Below are positions 5,539-64,000 of a stretch of DNA of 64,000 nucleotides, piece after piece. The translations under genes and the position numbers were made by a program. The stretch is from a virus (lineage: Duplodnaviria; Caudoviricetes): the IMG/VR virus record IMGVR_UViG_3300033121_000711, positions 1 to 64,000 of that record. One strand, written 5' to 3'. The notes below the pieces were generated by a model that saw nothing but the letters and a program-made list of their open reading frames with translations, made no database searches and had not been told where the DNA came from. Every line of letters starts with the position of its first letter. Position 1 is the first letter of the stretch.

Positions 5539-5809
5539 CGTGACGTTTCTCCTCTTTCAGAGTAGGTAAAACAAAAACAGCTTTTTGAATAGTTAGGCCC
5601 TTAATTTTAACGTCTTTGAGTTCATACTCTAAATACGTTAAGAGCTTAACATGCTTACGAAATTGATCTAAAGTTATCTTTTTGAATTTCCCTGTCACAG
5701 GCATTTCAATCAGAATAATAGCATCTTCTGCTACAACCGTCGAAATATTGAATCGATAAGGTGTGCTTTCAGGAGTTAAAAGTAAGGTTGCAAAAATCAA
5801 AGATAACAT
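5498..5809 (-). CDS. hypothetical protein, possible signal peptide
   Basis: ORF in an overlapping gene string. Confidence 0.55.
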   Translation of the reverse strand: MLSLIFATLLLTPESTPYRFNISTVVAEDAIILIEMPVTGKFKKITLDQFRKHVKLLTYLEYELKDVKIKGLTIQKAVFVLPTLKEEKRHDAKQSIPDACFCG

Positions 5810-6475: not shown

Positions 6476-8648
6476 TGGGAATCTCACAAATTGGGCCGGA
6501 ACAGTACTTCTCATCGATTCCGTCGCTACCTTTCAAGGAAGACCAATCGATAGTACCGATCGCAGCAAGTCGCATTTCATACTCAGTTTTAGAGATGCCT
6601 TCCTCTGGCATCTGACGATAGGCCCCTTTACAAGAGTGAGGGAGCAGACTCACCGATTTAGTATGTGGTGCAATAGCTGAAAGAACAGGTTCTATGGAAT
6701 CTTCTTCATGTGTAGGATCATATTCATAAATCCACATCTTAGAGATACCTCTAGATGGTGCTTTATGCCATTCAATCCTAATTTTGTAGCGATTTGGCAC
6801 TTCATAAGATGTTAGATGATTGTAATGAATTTCGTAGCAAGCTGCAACACCAATCAGGTTATCCAGACATCGCTCGAAATTACAATCAACAACTTCAATC
6901 AGCGGCCATTTCGGCTTAAAATATAAAGTATTGCTTACAGCGTTATCTGCCCATTCCCGTTGAACAAGAATCAAATTCATAGCCTGTTCCCAAAGGGATA
7001 CTTCGTAAGCAGGCTTTGCTGGTCCTTGTAAAATCGGAAATTCAAAAACATCTGTATACTTGTCAAAATAATCCTCTTCAAAAGGTATACCAGCTTTGAC
7101 AAGCAATGGATGCACTGGCGAATTTTTAGCAACTCTAATTCGCCTAATCGTATAATCAAAAGTAGGATGTCCAATACCAGGAGTTTTACCAGGTAACTTA
7201 GGACCTGTACCACCTGGCTTGATCGTAGTTACTCTAATAGAGACAGGAACGCCAGCTTCTTCGTTAAGCTTTTTATTAGCCTTACGAATCAACTTATAAC
7301 CTTCCCGCATATATTTCGTAACTTTATGGACACTTTCTTTTAATTTCCATCCTGAAAAATCAACAATACTCACACCTATCCGTCTATTGCGAGCAACTAC
7401 TCGATTAGTTGCAGGCTGATGTGTAGGTATCAGTGAAACTGTTGATGAGTAAAACGTGGCAAAGTCACAAGCCCTAAGCCACTCTTCCTTGTTAGTACAC
7501 ATTGTCGGTAATGTTTCAACAACATTACAAACTTCTTTATCCTCTAAAGGAATCTCGCCACACGGATTGAAACCTTTTGCCTTATCTTTCCGAAGACCTT
7601 TCATCTTCTTGCCGATACGAGCGAAAGGCATATTCCTACGATTAATGTAGCCTGGCTCACCATTACGAATAACAGATTTTGCAATCTCGCCAAGCATCAT
7701 AAAATCTTCGTCAGTCTCAAGCTCAACAGAATTATTAGACATCCAACCAAAAGCTTCACGCTCTGGATAGAGATCGTAATTTTTAAGATTCATGAACGTT
7801 TTATCACGAACCTTACCTTTAGCTAATTCTGCTGACCGTCGAACGTTACCAGCGACAACACAACATCCTGTATGATTAGCTAAATTTGTGAAAAGGTAAA
7901 CACTATCATATTCAGGCCTAGTGTTATATTTTTCAAATTCGGCGATTGTGCGTTCATGCAAATCTTTCAAAGGTTCAGGACCTGATGAGATACCACCAAA
8001 TCCTTTGATAGGCAGCCCTGGACCTCTAACTTTATCATATATAAAACGCGGTTTCTTTTGTCCCGGTTTTGTATATGCGTCAATCAGTGTTTGTTCGCTA
8101 TGACACCAACCTTCTCGGGTATCAGGGATTACATAATCATAAGTACCGACAGGGTTATAGATTTTGAAACCGTCATCCCTAATAGGGCCAAAACCTACAC
8201 CGACACCATGCATTAAGCAATCCATCAACCAACTTATATCAGGCCCTAATGTCTTAGAATTAAGATCTGTATAAGCACAGTTGTAAAGAGCCATAGCTCC
8301 GCGTTCGTATACGAAATCAGAACCCATAGCCCACAATCCACGCCCAGGAGGCATCCATTGCATCATGAACATGGCATGGATGAATTTATTAGAATACTCC
8401 CTCCAATAATCTTCATCCCATTGAATATGGTTTTTCAGATACCAATCTTTACGAATACTGAAAGTCCCTTCAGTATTTCGTATACAAACATCTGCCCAAT
8501 CTTCCTGACCTTCATTATTTTTGATACGACTGTAAGTTCTCCAAAAAGTTAGTTCACCAAATCCATTGTAGCCAAACGGTGGAGTAAGGCTTTTAATCTT
8601 ATCCACCGTTGCTTCACTAACCTTAAAACGATGCTCTACAAAAGACAT
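6447..8648 (-). CDS. nrdJ: class II (adenosylcobalamin-dependent, monomeric RTPR-type) ribonucleotide reductase
   Basis: RTYSR, PPGRGLW, NCA, GVGVGF, VVAGNVRRSAE, NPCGEI, TTIKPGGT, C-terminal CSGPIC. Confidence 0.95.
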   Translation of the reverse strand: MSFVEHRFKVSEATVDKIKSLTPPFGYNGFGELTFWRTYSRIKNNEGQEDWADVCIRNTEGTFSIRKDWYLKNHIQWDEDYWREYSNKFIHAMFMMQWMPPGRGLWAMGSDFVYERGAMALYNCAYTDLNSKTLGPDISWLMDCLMHGVGVGFGPIRDDGFKIYNPVGTYDYVIPDTREGWCHSEQTLIDAYTKPGQKKPRFIYDKVRGPGLPIKGFGGISSGPEPLKDLHERTIAEFEKYNTRPEYDSVYLFTNLANHTGCCVVAGNVRRSAELAKGKVRDKTFMNLKNYDLYPEREAFGWMSNNSVELETDEDFMMLGEIAKSVIRNGEPGYINRRNMPFARIGKKMKGLRKDKAKGFNPCGEIPLEDKEVCNVVETLPTMCTNKEEWLRACDFATFYSSTVSLIPTHQPATNRVVARNRRIGVSIVDFSGWKLKESVHKVTKYMREGYKLIRKANKKLNEEAGVPVSIRVTTIKPGGTGPKLPGKTPGIGHPTFDYTIRRIRVAKNSPVHPLLVKAGIPFEEDYFDKYTDVFEFPILQGPAKPAYEVSLWEQAMNLILVQREWADNAVSNTLYFKPKWPLIEVVDCNFERCLDNLIGVAACYEIHYNHLTSYEVPNRYKIRIEWHKAPSRGISKMWIYEYDPTHEEDSIEPVLSAIAPHTKSVSLLPHSCKGAYRQMPEEGISKTEYEMRLAAIGTIDWSSLKGSDGIDEKYCSGPICEIPNVESLRLVR

Positions 8649-8941
8649 GAAACACCTTTAGCTTTTTGCAACTCCTCCCCAACGGAGTTACATTTATCTT
8701 TAAAAGGGCATTGTCTACAGCTCTTAATAGAGAAGATCTTAAAAATAAGTTTCTTGAACCAATTACATTGACGTTTTTTAATACGTCCGTAATTAGGTCC
8801 TTCGACATTCGTTATAGTGATTTTACCCTCTTGGTTCTTCACTAAATAGTGATTCTTATCTCCAGCCAATAATTGCTGCAAGATGTGTTCTGCTTTTTCG
8901 TAATGCATCAGGTCTTCATTACACTTAAATAGGTGTACCAA
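8636..8941 (-). CDS. hypothetical protein with CxxCxxxxxC
   Basis: ORF; CRQCPFKDKC. Confidence 0.55.
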   Translation of the reverse strand: MVHLFKCNEDLMHYEKAEHILQQLLAGDKNHYLVKNQEGKITITNVEGPNYGRIKKRQCNWFKKLIFKIFSIKSCRQCPFKDKCNSVGEELQKAKGVSCLL

Positions 8942-20560: not shown

Positions 20561-20587
20561 ATACTGCCATTTTCCATTTTTTTCTAC
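20561..20587 (-). promoter_or_regulatory. phage-specific promoter motif copy 3 (GTAGA-N17-AGTAT)
   Basis: Leftward member of a divergent pair. Confidence 0.7.
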
Positions 20588-20598
20588 AGTTAACCGAA

Positions 20599-20688: not shown

Positions 20689-20701
20689 AAAGAGTAATTT
20701 T

Positions 20702-20728
20702 GTAGAAAAAAAATGAAAATGGCAGTAA
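20702..20728 (+). promoter_or_regulatory. phage-specific promoter motif copy 4 (GTAGA-N17-AGTAA)
   Basis: Rightward member, upstream of the primase. Confidence 0.7.
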
Positions 20729-56608: not shown

Positions 56609-57394
56609 TTAAGCTACGAGTTTTGTTAACCTATAACCATCGACCGATAACTTGCCATTTTCAAATCGAAGGATATAATTTTCGTTTTCGTTTGGTTCGG
56701 ATGGTGGAGCTGGAGGCCCGTACCTAGCTTGCATCTCAGCGACATCACCAGCTTGCGGCGTAAAAATGTTTTGAGAGTGCGTCGGAGCTAAAAGATTACC
56801 TGCCCCGATATGATTCATGCCCAAAGCATGTCCAAGTTCGTGACACATTACCCTGACTATGTCTAATTGATTCCCATTACGAGGACCATCAAAAATAGCC
56901 CAACTATCACGAGTATCGTACCACTGACGGCATTGTCGAGTGTTACCGCAAGGTAATTCTGATTCTGCAAGCACGCCAAACTGACCGTCAATTGCTCGCG
57001 TGTCCATCACGATTCGAGCGTTTGGATTTCCTGGCGTGTACTCTGGACGAATACCTGCTACTTTAGCCCAGCGATTTAACGCTTCAGCAGCACATTCAAC
57101 GTATTTTTGCTTATCAAAGCCCGGAAGAACAGCCACTACATCCCAACTTATGTAACCATCCGGCCACTTACAACGATTAGCTTGGGCCTGCATTGTATCT
57201 GGATGCTTACAGAATCGAATCTCTTGCAAGTGATTGATGATGTCACCAATACTAGAGAGACCGTGGAAAGCAGCGTACAATTTTTGCAGAATACTTAACT
57301 GCTGATCTGTTAATTTATCAAGAGTCTCTTCCAATGTTGAATAGATTTGCCAACCAAATTGGAAGAGACGTATGATTTGTGTGTTTCTATCCAC
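56609..57394 (-). CDS. matrixin (M10) metalloprotease with propeptide
   Basis: RFCKHPD cysteine switch, DG..GVLA, HELGHALGMNH. Confidence 0.9.
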   Translation of the reverse strand: MDRNTQIIRLFQFGWQIYSTLEETLDKLTDQQLSILQKLYAAFHGLSSIGDIINHLQEIRFCKHPDTMQAQANRCKWPDGYISWDVVAVLPGFDKQKYVECAAEALNRWAKVAGIRPEYTPGNPNARIVMDTRAIDGQFGVLAESELPCGNTRQCRQWYDTRDSWAIFDGPRNGNQLDIVRVMCHELGHALGMNHIGAGNLLAPTHSQNIFTPQAGDVAEMQARYGPPAPPSEPNENENYILRFENGKLSVDGYRLTKLVA

Positions 57395-59055: not shown

Positions 59056-59172
59056 TCTCATATCTGTGCACGCTTTTTGGACCAAATTTTGACAGTGTTA
59101 GTTCCCTCATATAGAGATACTGCCTTTTACAGAAAATTTCTACAGCTATTTTTGGCCCAAAAAGCGTGCACG
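59056..59172. repeat. ~21-bp inverted repeat GTGCACGCTTTTTGG(A/G)CCAAA flanking the late promoter; third copy at 63980-64000
   Basis: 59056-59076 (+), 59151-59172 (-), 63980-64000 (+). Confidence 0.8.
59117..59143 (-). promoter_or_regulatory. phage-specific promoter motif copy 5 (GTAGA-N17-AGTAT), head of the late operon
   Basis: Matches the consensus and points into the structural operon. Confidence 0.7.
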
Positions 59173-59243: not shown

Positions 59244-59281
59244 AGGTAGGTGAGGGTATAAATTTTTTAGATTTGATTTTC

Positions 59282-59370
59282 AAAATCGCGATTTTGAAAA
59301 TCGCGATTTTGAAAATGCAAAATGCAAAAATGCTTTTTGTTTCTTGCTCTTGTTTCTTGTTTCTTGTTTA
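59282..59370. repeat. tandem palindromes and short repeats
   Basis: (AAAATCGCGATTTTG)x2, (AAAATGC)x3, (TTGTTTC) repeats. Confidence 0.75.
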
Positions 59371-59472: not shown

Positions 59473-59502
59473 TTGCTTTCAACCCTGGCAGTATGATATA
59501 AT
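59473..59502 (+). promoter_or_regulatory. sigma70-type early promoter (extended -10)
   Basis: TTGCTT-N18-TATAAT with TG at the extended -10 position. Confidence 0.6.
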
Positions 59503-59986: not shown

Positions 59987-60015
59987 TTGACAGCCGGCCG
60001 TTACTGGCCTAAGAT
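59987..60015 (+). promoter_or_regulatory. strong sigma70-type early promoter
   Basis: TTGACA-N17-TAAGAT with an upstream A/T tract. Confidence 0.8.
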
Positions 60016-60020
60016 GTATA

Positions 60021-60364
60021 TACCGGGAAAGGGAACGCACAGCGGTTCGAGTCCGCTACCCGGGCCTTGCCCACACCTTGTCTTGTTAAGGAGTCCGCGT
60101 AGCTTTTGAGGATCATGATCCCTAGCGGTCGTGTATCCGTGGTCTAGCGAACCTTCTAATTGGCGAGCCGTCCGGAACGGTCAACCCCGGTAGGGGAGAT
60201 ACGGGCCAAGCCGTGTGAACTGCTGTGTCACGGTAGGCTTATGAGGCGGGATACGCTGGTGACATTGAAAGCCAGGAACCGCTGACACCTTGTCCGCAAG
60301 GGAGCAATACGGAACCGCCGACCGTGGTGAAACTCCACGGCCAAGGAGCGGTCCCGGTATAACC
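60021..60364 (+). ncRNA. candidate large structured non-coding leader RNA beginning with a tRNA-like minihelix
   Basis: No ORF in the track; T-arm AGCGG-TTCGAGT-CCGCT closed by CCGGG/CCCGG; many stems including GCAA and TGAAA loops. Confidence 0.6.
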
Positions 60365-60890
60365 GGGGGATAGGCAAAGGGGCTGGACTCTTAACTCTTA
60401 AGAGAAAGGCCAGTCCGATGATTACCAGCTATAAGAACCAAGTCTGCGTCCGTGAGTCAGTCGAAATGGGTCGGACCTACGAGATCCGCTTCTACACTAA
60501 CCCGGAAGGGGAGGTCTACGGTATCAGCGTCTCGCTGGCCACCAGCGGGAACTGGAACTGGACGAAGAATGTCGGGTCGTATGACGACTGGCAAATTAAG
60601 ACTCGGGTCGAAGATGCGGCCATCGAGGCCGGACTCACGATCCCGGCGTACCTCTGGTACGTCGAGCCAGAATGCGAAAGTTTCTGGCTTGTCGTAATCA
60701 ACGAGAACATGAACGACTTCAATGCTCGGGTCGTCAACGATACCGAGTACATCCCGTTCACAAACGAGCGTATCTACACCGCATGCCGAGAGCTGGATAC
60801 GGCTCTCGAACAACTCGAGGAAGCGAAAAGCTACCTCGCAGAACGTTTCGGTCGCTAATCACCTCAGTCCAGCCTCTCTGCCTGTCCCCC
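60365..60890. repeat. inverted repeat pair 1 (25 bp) enclosing ORF 60418-60858
   Basis: 60365-60389 / 60866-60890; 22 WC pairs, 2 G-U, 1 A-C. Confidence 0.9.
60418..60858 (+). CDS. early hypothetical protein
   Basis: ORF with a purine-rich RBS. Confidence 0.7.
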   Translation: MITSYKNQVCVRESVEMGRTYEIRFYTNPEGEVYGISVSLATSGNWNWTKNVGSYDDWQIKTRVEDAAIEAGLTIPAYLWYVEPECESFWLVVINENMNDFNARVVNDTEYIPFTNERIYTACRELDTALEQLEEAKSYLAERFGR

Positions 60891-60909
60891 CTGTTGTACA
60901 TGGGAATAG

Positions 60910-61278
60910 CGTAGGATCCGTACAAACGGGCCGTCAACAGAATGGACGGTCAAGATGTACGAGACATATACTTCTGACGGCGAATTTCTGGAGTTCTACG
61001 ATAGCGTCATGGACGCTATCCTAGGGACTCTGAAATACTGGCCTGAGGACAACAACCCTAAGACGGTCGTTGTCCGTAACCCGGAAGGCATAGACCTTGC
61101 CACGATAGCGGCAAGGTCATGTTATGAGGCGGTAGTAGTAACGGCCGACCACATTGAAGTGGTCAGCCAGATTAACTACTGCGATGGCCGCATCGTCGCG
61201 ACAACCATGCTAAGAAATGGCCATCAGTTCAAGATCAACCACTAACAGGGTTGACGGCCCGTCTGTACGGATCCTACG
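60910..61278. repeat. inverted repeat pair 2 (29 bp) enclosing ORF 60955-61245
   Basis: 60910-60938 / 61250-61278; one mismatch. Confidence 0.92.
60955..61245 (+). CDS. early hypothetical protein
   Basis: ORF track. Confidence 0.7.
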   Translation: MYETYTSDGEFLEFYDSVMDAILGTLKYWPEDNNPKTVVVRNPEGIDLATIAARSCYEAVVVTADHIEVVSQINYCDGRIVATTMLRNGHQFKINH

Positions 61279-62560
61279 TTGGGTGTGGTGTCTCCGCCAA
61301 TACCCCGGATAGTATAATCCCGGATTTTCAACATCAGAGTTTCTACTATCCGGTAGACTGCGTGTGCAGTCTACCTTAACTATGTTCGAGCCGGTTGGCT
61401 CGAAACTGTTCAGGAGTGTATATCATGGCGAAGAACATCACGAAAACCGTTTCGATCGACACCTTGATCGTGGACTTCAAGACCAATGTGCGTCTGGCGT
61501 CCAACTACGATCTCCCGGCAATGGAGCAGTCCATTGTCGAGAAAGGGAGGATCGAGGATGCGATACATGCCAGACTGTGTGACGGCGTTGTCCTTCGGGG
61601 TAATCGTCGCACGCTCGCAGGGCAGAAACTGCTGAAGGATCCCGCCACCCCGCAAGAGGTGGTCGCTAACCTGAAAAAGGTCGTCGTGATCTATCACGAC
61701 GTGGCACCGGGATCAGCGGAGGAGCTGTCCATTGTCCTCGATCACGGTAGCCAGAAGAAGCTGTGCAAGACGGAAGTCTTGTTGAGCGTCTGGCGGCTCG
61801 ATCGCCAGTTCCAGAGCGAGATGCAGATCATCAACCGACTGTACTTCGCTCTGGCGGAGTACACTCGTCGCCAGGAAAAGGCGATCGAGGCTAGCAAGAT
61901 CGTGTCTCTCAAGGAGAGGCAGGACTACCTCCGATCGTGGTTGCACGGAACCGTCGGCAACTATATGTTGGCCGGCAACAAGATGGGCGAGTACGTGCGT
62001 CAGCAGATGGAATTGACCCACATGGCCGAAGACGGCCTACTCCCGCAAGGTGTTACGGTCGAGTGCAAGATCGACCGGACTAGAATGACGAAACTGTCCG
62101 CCGCGAAAGAAGCGGACAGCGACGCCAAGAAGGGCGGAAAGGGCTGGACGTACGAGGCTGGCGGCGAGAAGTTCAATGAACTTCTCGAAACGTTCAAGGC
62201 CGAGGATCGTGGCGAAGTCGAGAAGGAGAAGAAAAGCCGGCCTTCCCCGAAGGAGTTGAAGGATCGGGCAAACTCCTTCAAGAGCCCTGCCATCAGGTCT
62301 GCCCTGATGGTTGCGGCCGGAGAGGTTGAACACGGCAAGGATCTCGTGGAGCTGGATGACCGTCTGCATCGTATGCAGATGGTCACGGATACGCTGTCCA
62401 AGCGTATCGGAGAGATCGCCGACGAAAAGATCGTTGCCCTCATCAAGGCCATCATCGGCGATGGACCGGCCGGTGAAATTGAATTGGCGATCAACAAGAT
62501 CGTCGGCAAGTAAAGTAAGTTAGCCCCTATCCGGGGTATTGACGAAGCCACCACACCCAA
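61279..62560. repeat. inverted repeat pair 3 (34 bp) enclosing ORF 61425-62513
   Basis: 61279-61312 / 62527-62560; three mismatches. Confidence 0.92.
61425..62513 (+). CDS. divergent ParB/Srx N-terminal domain protein
   Basis: NVR...Y.LPAM..SI...G, VLRGNRR..A; AGGAG RBS. Confidence 0.75.
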   Translation: MAKNITKTVSIDTLIVDFKTNVRLASNYDLPAMEQSIVEKGRIEDAIHARLCDGVVLRGNRRTLAGQKLLKDPATPQEVVANLKKVVVIYHDVAPGSAEELSIVLDHGSQKKLCKTEVLLSVWRLDRQFQSEMQIINRLYFALAEYTRRQEKAIEASKIVSLKERQDYLRSWLHGTVGNYMLAGNKMGEYVRQQMELTHMAEDGLLPQGVTVECKIDRTRMTKLSAAKEADSDAKKGGKGWTYEAGGEKFNELLETFKAEDRGEVEKEKKSRPSPKELKDRANSFKSPAIRSALMVAAGEVEHGKDLVELDDRLHRMQMVTDTLSKRIGEIADEKIVALIKAIIGDGPAGEIELAINKIVGK

Positions 62561-62571
62561 AAGGAGGAAGT

Positions 62572-62748
62572 ATGAGTGCATGGGCATACGTCAAGAAAGA
62601 TCTTGACGTATGGCGGTACTGTATGAGCCGATACTTCGCACTATGCGAACGTATCGGCGGAACCGAATGTGCAAAAAGGTGTGTTCGACACCTTTTCAAG
62701 AGATGTGTCGCGGAACAGGTTCACACAATCCTGGAGTTAGTATCATGA
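62572..62748 (+). CDS. small hypothetical protein
   Basis: AGGAGG RBS; MSAWAYVKK... Confidence 0.6.
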   Translation: MSAWAYVKKDLDVWRYCMSRYFALCERIGGTECAKRCVRHLFKRCVAEQVHTILELVS

Positions 62749-62909
62749 AGATCCAGACGACTGGTAGGTTCATCAGTGTTTGCGAGCCCAACCAAGGTCG
62801 CACGTATGATGAAAATGGGCGTTTGCTTACGCGATCGCTCGTTACTGGGCGATCCCGCAAGCTGAACAAAAAGCTTCACGCACGCAAACTAAGGCGTGAA
62901 GTTATTTAG
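62745..62909 (+). CDS. small basic hypothetical protein
   Basis: GGAG RBS, ATGA overlap. Confidence 0.55.
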   Translation: MKIQTTGRFISVCEPNQGRTYDENGRLLTRSLVTGRSRKLNKKLHARKLRREVI

Positions 62910-62996
62910 TCCACATCCGGGGTAGCGATCATCCCCCGCTACTGAAACATAGGGGATGAACGGAGACACCACATTTGTTTCCCGGAGTGAAAAAGC

Positions 62997-63940: not shown

Positions 63941-64000
63941 TGATTTGACCAAGCTAACTAGCTTGGTCCAAGCCAATTCGTGCACGCTTTTTGGCCCAAA

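Follow-up and report, generated by a model that had tools for sequence, protein, structure and literature searches.

What does it mean that three consecutive phage genes each lie between the two arms of a long inverted repeat of their own? The question is raised by a 64,000-nucleotide (nt) stretch of tailed-phage DNA (Caudoviricetes; hereafter the window), which is the first 64 kb of the 92,712-bp IMG/VR record IMGVR_UViG_3300033121_000711, judged 99% complete. The virion genes of this phage (terminase, major head protein and others) are on the minus strand, and the three repeat-enclosed genes, here called cassettes, are located within a 3.5-kb plus-strand island at about 59.4-63.0 kb. A sequence-only reading of the window had proposed that the paired arms fold a polycistronic early RNA into looped-out genes. 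The feature is real and conserved, and it can best be read as an organisation of phage early messenger RNA (mRNA) that resembles a ribosomal RNA (rRNA) precursor. The helices listed here come from an inverted-repeat search, and the genes are given as open reading frames (ORFs):

60353-60389, plus strand: 5' arm of helix 1 (core 60365-60389).
60418-60858, plus strand: cargo gene 1 (ORF1), 146 amino acids (aa), an ORFan of coding type (G+C content at third codon positions, GC3, 0.71).
60866-60904, plus strand: 3' arm of helix 1 (core 60866-60890).
60365-60389 / 60866-60890: helix 1 core, 25 nt, 88% matched.
60910-60938 / 61250-61278: helix 2, 29 nt, 97% matched.
60955-61245, plus strand: cargo gene 2 (ORF2), 96 aa, an ORFan with a coding-type codon-position G+C pattern.
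61279-61312 / 62527-62560: helix 3, 34 nt, 91% matched.
61425-62513, plus strand: cargo gene 3 (ORF3), 362 aa from its ATG, ParB/Noc/KorB-like.

The three pairs, their coordinates and the ORFs that they enclose were reproduced exactly by a repeat and ORF search. Each pair encloses exactly one plus-strand ORF, with arms 311-1214 nt apart and the gene between them. In cassettes 1, 2 and 3 the stop codon is followed by the 3' arm after 7, 4 and 13 nt, respectively (4-13 nt as first described), and the 5' arm of helix 2 ends 16 nt upstream of the ATG. Pair 2 runs up to 61278 and pair 3 begins with the next base, 61279, leaving 0 nt between them, again as first described, and the pairs indeed share no sequence: the longest word common to arms of different pairs is ≤6 nt, and each pair is unique in the genome. 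In our own scan they are the top long-range inverted repeats of the entire 92,712-bp genome, with scores of 17.5, 26.5 and 26.5, vs locally shuffled genomes that gave 0-3 pairs at a score of ≥16 and none that strong, so that chance is a very poor explanation for them. Long-range RNA folding, which the sequence-only reading had named as a check, returned the closing helices of cassettes 1 and 2 in both the minimum free energy (MFE) and centroid structures (z = -7.4 and -11.9, respectively), and the closing helices were also present in the MFE structure of the whole 3-kb stretch. The RNA fold extends helix 1 outward to 60353-60389/60866-60904 by 11 further pairs, two of which are G.U. The mismatches of the window comprise two G.U on the sense strand and four A.C (G.T on the antisense strand), as tallied before, together with one T.C that the earlier tally left unmentioned. 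The 5' arm of helix 3 carries GTCTCC; relatives have this motif in the corresponding arm, and it is mismatched with the 3' arm, after which AAGGAGG and a fourth ORF follow directly.

ORF3 is, by its predicted structure, a ParB/Noc/KorB-like protein and the conserved anchor gene of the module. Its AlphaFold2 model (predicted local distance difference test score, pLDDT, 91.5) matches 5k5d, 6sdk, 7bnr and 8qa9 in Foldseek with probability 1.0, it has the ParB N-domain fold and a GNRR motif, and its match to Pfam ParB_N is weak; 49 homologues were found in metagenomes. For ORF1 and ORF2, searches gave neither relatives nor a Pfam or PHROG family. Cultured phages show no relationship to the window phage at the DNA level or via ORF3, and the nearest TerL of any isolate shares 26% identity. 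Ten loci were compared: the window, four IMG/VR phages (L006-L009) and four metagenome contigs (L010-L013) recovered by alignment-based ORF3 searches, and G006:C4, a 64-kb contig in a Cloacimonadota metagenome-assembled genome (MAG) that came from a TerL search. Scanning IMG/VR with ORF1 or ORF3 as a single protein gave no match, and two sub-alignments gave no additional loci. The whole genomes of the four IMG/VR phages (G001-G004) are syntenic with that of the window phage, with TerL 50-65% and the major head protein 45-61% identical.

Every locus has a separate inverted repeat of 18-34 nt around its ParB-like gene. The repeats flanking this gene scored 18-29 in all eight loci scored, compared with at most 14.5 for shuffles and 8-16.5 for direct-repeat controls. 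Examined apart from these eight, L009 encloses its distant ParB-like ORF in an 18-nt pair, and G006:C4 has four abutting helices adjoining TerL with one ORF each, the last of which carries a ParB-like GHRR motif. Small neighbouring ORFs each have a helix of their own as well (L007 has six such cassettes in a row and L011 has three that abut), and long-range inverted repeats cluster at the module and hardly occur elsewhere in these genomes. The layout is kept from 28% G+C (G006:C4) to 60-65% G+C (L006 and L007).

Helix lengths range from 18 to 36 bp, and over 31 helices (827 positions) 95% of the positions are Watson-Crick pairs, while the arm sequences are unrelated between loci; the arms were too diverged for column-wise alignment with MAFFT, and pairs were counted by script. 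The ParB helix of the nearest fetched relative, L010 (62% protein identity), is recognisably homologous to that of the window, and between the two there are seven changes in both arms that keep the pairs and none in one arm only outside the central mismatched patch. These comparisons indicate that the arms are under selection for pairing and are conserved as pairing, not as sequence. The cargo proteins are unrelated to one another, and the helix positions are kept while the cargo differs between relatives, a pattern that the sequence-only reading had said should be looked for; on the sequences compared, the helices are 'slots' that stay fixed in position while the enclosed gene is replaced. 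All 26 helices with a clear ORF enclose a single ORF on the operon strand, and a few helices enclose ORF-free segments. The distance from the end of the 5' arm to the start codon has a median of about 19 nt, with the Shine-Dalgarno sequence directly after the arm (5' arms end upstream of it in nearly all cassettes), the distance from the stop codon to the 3' arm has a median of about 13 nt, and the spacing between a 3' arm and the next 5' arm is mostly 0-20 nt.

A 288-nt contig of 2x depth from a riverine metagenome, belonging to a near-identical strain, matches window positions 60355-60412 with three differences. From 60413 onward it has a different sequence (beginning ...AAATGAACGCC) and a different ORF, which hints at cargo swapped precisely at the ORF boundary.

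Upstream of the first cassette, the plus strand holds the following elements:

59473-59502, plus strand: promoter-like site at the start of the island (TTGCTT, 18 nt, TGaTATAAT), read by eye on weak evidence; its -35 hexamer has 3/6 matches, too few for the site to be listed by the consensus scan.
59987-60015, plus strand: predicted sigma-70-type promoter (TTGACA-17-TAAGAT), with 10/12 consensus matches the best in 58.9-64 kb.
60019-60364, plus strand: ORF-free leader of about 340 nt, a non-coding 'cassette 0'.

The transcript start predicted for the 59987-60015 promoter lies near 60022 (from consensus only). Leader positions 60019-60030 can pair with 60352-60363, forming a closing stem that is present in both the MFE and centroid structures and begins at the predicted 5' end of the transcript; the overall fold of 60016-60420 is no better than that of shuffles (z = -0.67).

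Because they are tied to translation signals, co-oriented, private in their arms, preceded by a leader stem at the predicted transcript start and at least two turns long, the helices are very probably RNA structures of one kind or another. To one specific form of this, RNA helices in a polycistronic early mRNA that are cut by host RNase III in the manner of an rRNA precursor, we assign a rough probability of 55%. Host RNA polymerase would transcribe the polycistronic early RNA from the 59987-60015 promoter, and perhaps from the 59473-59502 site too. As each gene is transcribed, the arm after its stop codon would pair with the arm before its Shine-Dalgarno sequence, closing the cistron into a loop on a helix of 25-36 bp, with neighbouring helices 0-20 nt apart. 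Cleavage of each helix by host RNase III would yield monocistronic mRNAs whose 5' and 3' ends are still paired; the paired ends would shield the mRNA from 5'-end-dependent and 3' exonucleolytic decay, and each message would thereby be stabilised or insulated. Pairing in RNA, cutting by RNase III and stabilisation or insulation of the message are the steps that we infer. RNase III needs about two turns of double-stranded RNA, which lengths of 18-36 bp fit. Host cleavage is most likely since near-perfect duplexes of 25-36 bp are RNase III substrates and the phages are without an RNase III of their own (none was found in the five related genomes). Such processing would unite the design of an rRNA precursor with the end that the early RNase III sites of T7 serve. 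The phages gave no match to T7-type RNA polymerase either, but neither did any control genome, so this result is uninformative. A broader 'one gene, one private helix' grammar, in which a near-continuous stack of helices would release cistrons with paired ends and provide slots for swapped genes, is advanced tentatively, at somewhat short of even odds.

Several observations weigh against the cutting of RNA helices. Mismatches in the 31 helices comprise 9 G.U, 15 A.C (G.U on the antisense strand) and 17 others, which leaves the sense strand unsupported, and of the 27 helices compared by duplex energy, 18 are more stable on the minus strand (Wilcoxon p = 0.15; the four G006:C4 helices were left out). 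Since there is no wobble bias toward the sense strand, strand-symmetric explanations at the DNA level keep some standing. Of the looped-out RNA proposed earlier, selection for pairing has been borne out by the ten loci and the compensatory changes, and the preference for RNA over single-stranded DNA (ssDNA) has gained nothing from the mismatches. The host RNase III is assumed, and TerL relatives (L037-L041, 46-64% identity) sit in MAGs of five phyla, assigned to Saccharibacteria, Cloacimonadota, Acetothermia, Pontiellaceae and Dehalococcoidales; such a spread most likely means that phage contigs were mis-binned, so that no host is indicated. Finally, crossing repeats or two to three alternative partners (window 62915-62973, L006 and L007) defy a scheme of 'one helix, one cut'.

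About half of the A.C mismatches cluster at the centre of the ParB helix, in a recurrent patch that faces a TCTC motif, and may represent a maintained internal loop rather than drift. The motif, TCTC(C/T/A), is present in 6 of 9 ParB-helix 5' arms (window, L006, L008, L010, L011 and L012), which are mostly mismatched exactly there; the patch resembles a maintained internal loop and could be a protein-binding or cleavage-directing site.

The alternative partners in the window involve the region around and downstream of ORF3:

61313-61424, plus strand: 5' untranslated region (UTR) of ORF3, 112 nt, with local hairpins.
62572-62748 and 62745-62909, plus strand: ORF4 (58 aa) and ORF5 (54 aa), overlapping at ATGA and without a 5' arm of their own.
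62915-62973, plus strand: alternative bipartite 3' partner of the arm 61279-61312, made up of ATCCGGGGTA (62915-62924) and CGGAGACACCACA (62961-62973).

The Shine-Dalgarno sequence of ORF3 (AGGAG) is 9 nt upstream of the ATG, and a local hairpin at 61305-61353 competes with helix 3 for CCGGATAG. Between ATCCGGGGTA and CGGAGACACCACA is a stretch that contains a local hairpin, and pairing with 62915-62973 would close ORF3, ORF4 and ORF5 jointly. In L006 the 5' arm 5621-5652 has three alternative 3' partners (7103-7134, 8354-8374 and 8733-8756), which share GCCGTACTCTTCA; multiple 3' partners are likewise present in the window (62527-62560 and 62915-62973), and the extra partners of both loci could be recombination scars or alternative closures. 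In L007 a 33-nt pair (5314-5346/8227-8259, 32 matches) links the leader of the operon with the final 32 nt of a coding sequence farther downstream and crosses the helix of that downstream gene (pseudoknot topology); once released, the L007 leader possibly acts on the downstream message.

The main rival to cutting by RNase III retains the RNA helices and leaves them uncleaved. They would close each cistron and so insulate its ribosome-binding site (RBS) from adjoining sequence, promote re-initiation by ribosomes on the same cistron by placing its stop codon beside its start codon, or gate translation, the 5' arm in the gating variant pairing first with the RBS region and being freed once the 3' arm has been transcribed. 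The conservation and geometry described above apply equally to such a closing helix, and start and stop codons are both about 10-40 nt from the helix base. Local hairpins of the 5' arms are available as well: 60380-60386 with 60408-60414 just upstream of the ORF1 ATG, GGCCGTC with GACGGTC upstream of the ORF2 ATG, and the hairpin at 61305-61353. However, the local hairpins that would occlude the RBS are short, 25-36 near-perfect bp far exceeds the needs of closure or insulation, and RNase III, where present, should cut such helices; we consider helices that stay uncleaved unlikely.

An explanation at the level of DNA, which we regard as distinctly improbable, holds that the cassettes are exchanged through recombination between arms or through ssDNA hairpins, or that single genes are inverted, with the arms kept complementary by concerted evolution and not by selection on RNA. 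It is in keeping with the lack of a sense-strand wobble bias, with the unrelated cargo at conserved slots among relatives, and with the low-depth riverine contig, which keeps the 5' arm and leader to 60412 and then has a different ORF. The extra direct copies of the 3' arm in L006 and the window resemble recombination scars, and the composition of the module departs from that of the genome in both directions. Against it, no resolvase/invertase, tyrosine integrase or Y1 transposase was found in the five genomes (DDE transposases were not searched), and PF00589 gave no match in G000-G004 and matched all control genomes. As every cassette has arms of its own, one site-specific enzyme could not recognise them all, and nothing points to inversion, every one of the 26 cargo ORFs having the orientation of the operon. 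Contigs from two runs over the region have one orientation and no joints or inversions, a result that covers assembled contigs only (fragments in the second run), with rare forms possible. The abutting of 61278 and 61279 leaves no room for target-site duplications; together with the failure to find a resolvase, tyrosine integrase or Y1 transposase, the families searched, this means that the arms are not insertion sequence (IS) ends, as had been argued from the sequence. The placement of Shine-Dalgarno sequences and stop codons and the leader stem at the predicted start are without an obvious DNA rationale, and a separation of 0.2-1.7 kb puts the arms out of reach of the template-switch correction known for quasipalindromes.

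That the helices position cistron ends for ligation into circular mRNAs, as was also suggested earlier, draws on geometry only (after a cut by RNase III, the 5' phosphate and 3' OH would be adjacent in the duplex) and is hardly credible, as no RtcB or RNA-ligase family was found in the five related phage genomes and circular mRNAs made in this way have, to our knowledge, no counterpart in bacteria or phages.

The island that carries the module is 50-60% G+C vs 40.7% for the genome and is the sole such island in it; GC3 of the early module is 0.63-0.75 vs 0.26 for the terminase. The local rise in G+C is also seen in G003 and L011, whereas the module of G006:C4 is AT-rich (about 28% vs 40% G+C). 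Since the composition of the module is shifted in opposite directions among relatives, it is uncoupled from the backbone, which suggests module exchange between phages. No Rfam family was matched in 59.3-63.1 kb at gathering or permissive thresholds.

Four further features of the genome were noted. A 20-22-bp motif, CGTGCACGCTTTTTGGCCCAAA, has about six copies clustered either side of the island:

Window 59066-59086, 59151-59172 and 63979-64000, and genome 64004-64023, 64271-64291 and 64305-64324, both orientations: copies of CGTGCACGCTTTTTGGCCCAAA.

These could be candidate binding sites for the ParB/KorB-like protein, or phage operators or promoters. In an AT-rich tandem repeat at 59263-59329, a contig from the probable source run has 15 extra bases (ATCGCGATTTTGAAA) at 59299, which is a copy-number difference of the repeat unit. 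The only other strong mid-range repeat of the genome is a 27-nt inverted repeat, 20562-20588 / 20701-20727, which has 25 matches and arms separated by 112 nt; it lies in the intergenic region from which the minus- and plus-strand gene blocks diverge. The virion gene block ends with a minus-strand gene, 56609-57394, for a matrixin-type (Peptidase_M10) protein.

If the early mRNA is indeed cut by host RNase III at these helices, rRNA-precursor architecture has been carried over to protein-coding operons of phages, and early phage messages would be separated, stabilised and insulated by a new principle. Such an arrangement would account for the insertion of unrelated genes into an operon with no harm to the genes beside them. 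It would also supply a sequence mark by which early operons, with ORFans that often act against the host, could be found in uncultured phages, and synthetic operons would gain ready-made, orthogonal parts for insulation and processing. If true, the 'one gene, one private helix' grammar would be an undescribed way of organising and processing phage mRNA.

No account of helices that enclose the genes of a phage operon came up in the literature searches, in agreement with the sequence-only reading, which knew of no described phage system so arranged. Known mobile and invertible elements differ from it. Unlike the ends of IS elements or miniature inverted-repeat transposable elements (MITEs), each pair here is unique and has no target-site duplication, and no Y1 transposase, resolvase or integrase accompanies it (the search did not include DDE transposases); unlike invertons and shufflons, the module has no resolvase/invertase that could be found, and its cargo is all in one orientation. 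Integron cassettes share with it co-oriented, promoterless, unrelated small genes, an imperfect inverted repeat at the boundary and turnover of cargo. However, an attC site sits at one cassette end as a local palindrome with conserved core sites and needs the IntI tyrosine recombinase, whereas the arms here flank the gene, are private (≤6 nt in common) and come with no tyrosine recombinase match.

Pairing between the two ends of one mRNA is described for cellular genes in two reports: in Bacillus subtilis hbs, a 14-bp interaction of the 5' and 3' UTRs modulates cleavage by RNase Y (PMC5737220), and in Staphylococcus aureus icaR, the 5' UTR pairs with the 3' UTR within one mRNA (PMC3868564). 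These resemble the phage cassettes in that the ends of one mRNA pair, but they are single, shorter interactions in cellular genes, whereas here an array of 18-36-bp helices extends over every gene of an operon. The icaR pairing covers the Shine-Dalgarno sequence to repress, whereas the helices here stop short of it. RNase III is reportedly involved in the case of icaR mRNA.

The early RNase III sites of T7 (R0.3-R1.3) are local hairpins between genes. The two systems would be alike in that a host-transcribed polycistronic early mRNA is split into single-gene messages that are stabilised by end duplexes; the T7 sites are local and intergenic, whereas here the strands of the duplex flank the gene, the gene is looped out and the ends of the message are paired together. 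With arms that flank genes at 311-1214 nt, the likeness drawn earlier to rRNA stems, rather than to T7 hairpins, is upheld. In E. coli, the leader-trailer helices of rrn operons are cut by RNase III, and 16S and 23S are excised from the precursor in this way. CTCTTAA, a boxA-like word, occurs twice at 60388-60401, after the first 5' arm, and TCTC motifs are present in 6 of 9 ParB 5' arms; CTCTT[TA]A words are not conserved in relatives and no consistent boxA-like word recurs across them. Antitermination in the style of rRNA is accordingly a possible lead that the comparison did not substantiate. Unlike rRNA, the enclosed products here are protein ORFs of a phage operon, with Shine-Dalgarno sequences and coding-type GC3, and no stable RNA. 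The rRNA processing stalks and the phage helices have in common long-range flanks of about 25-30 bp that pair across a whole product of 0.3-3 kb, co-vary between species and stand in series within one precursor.

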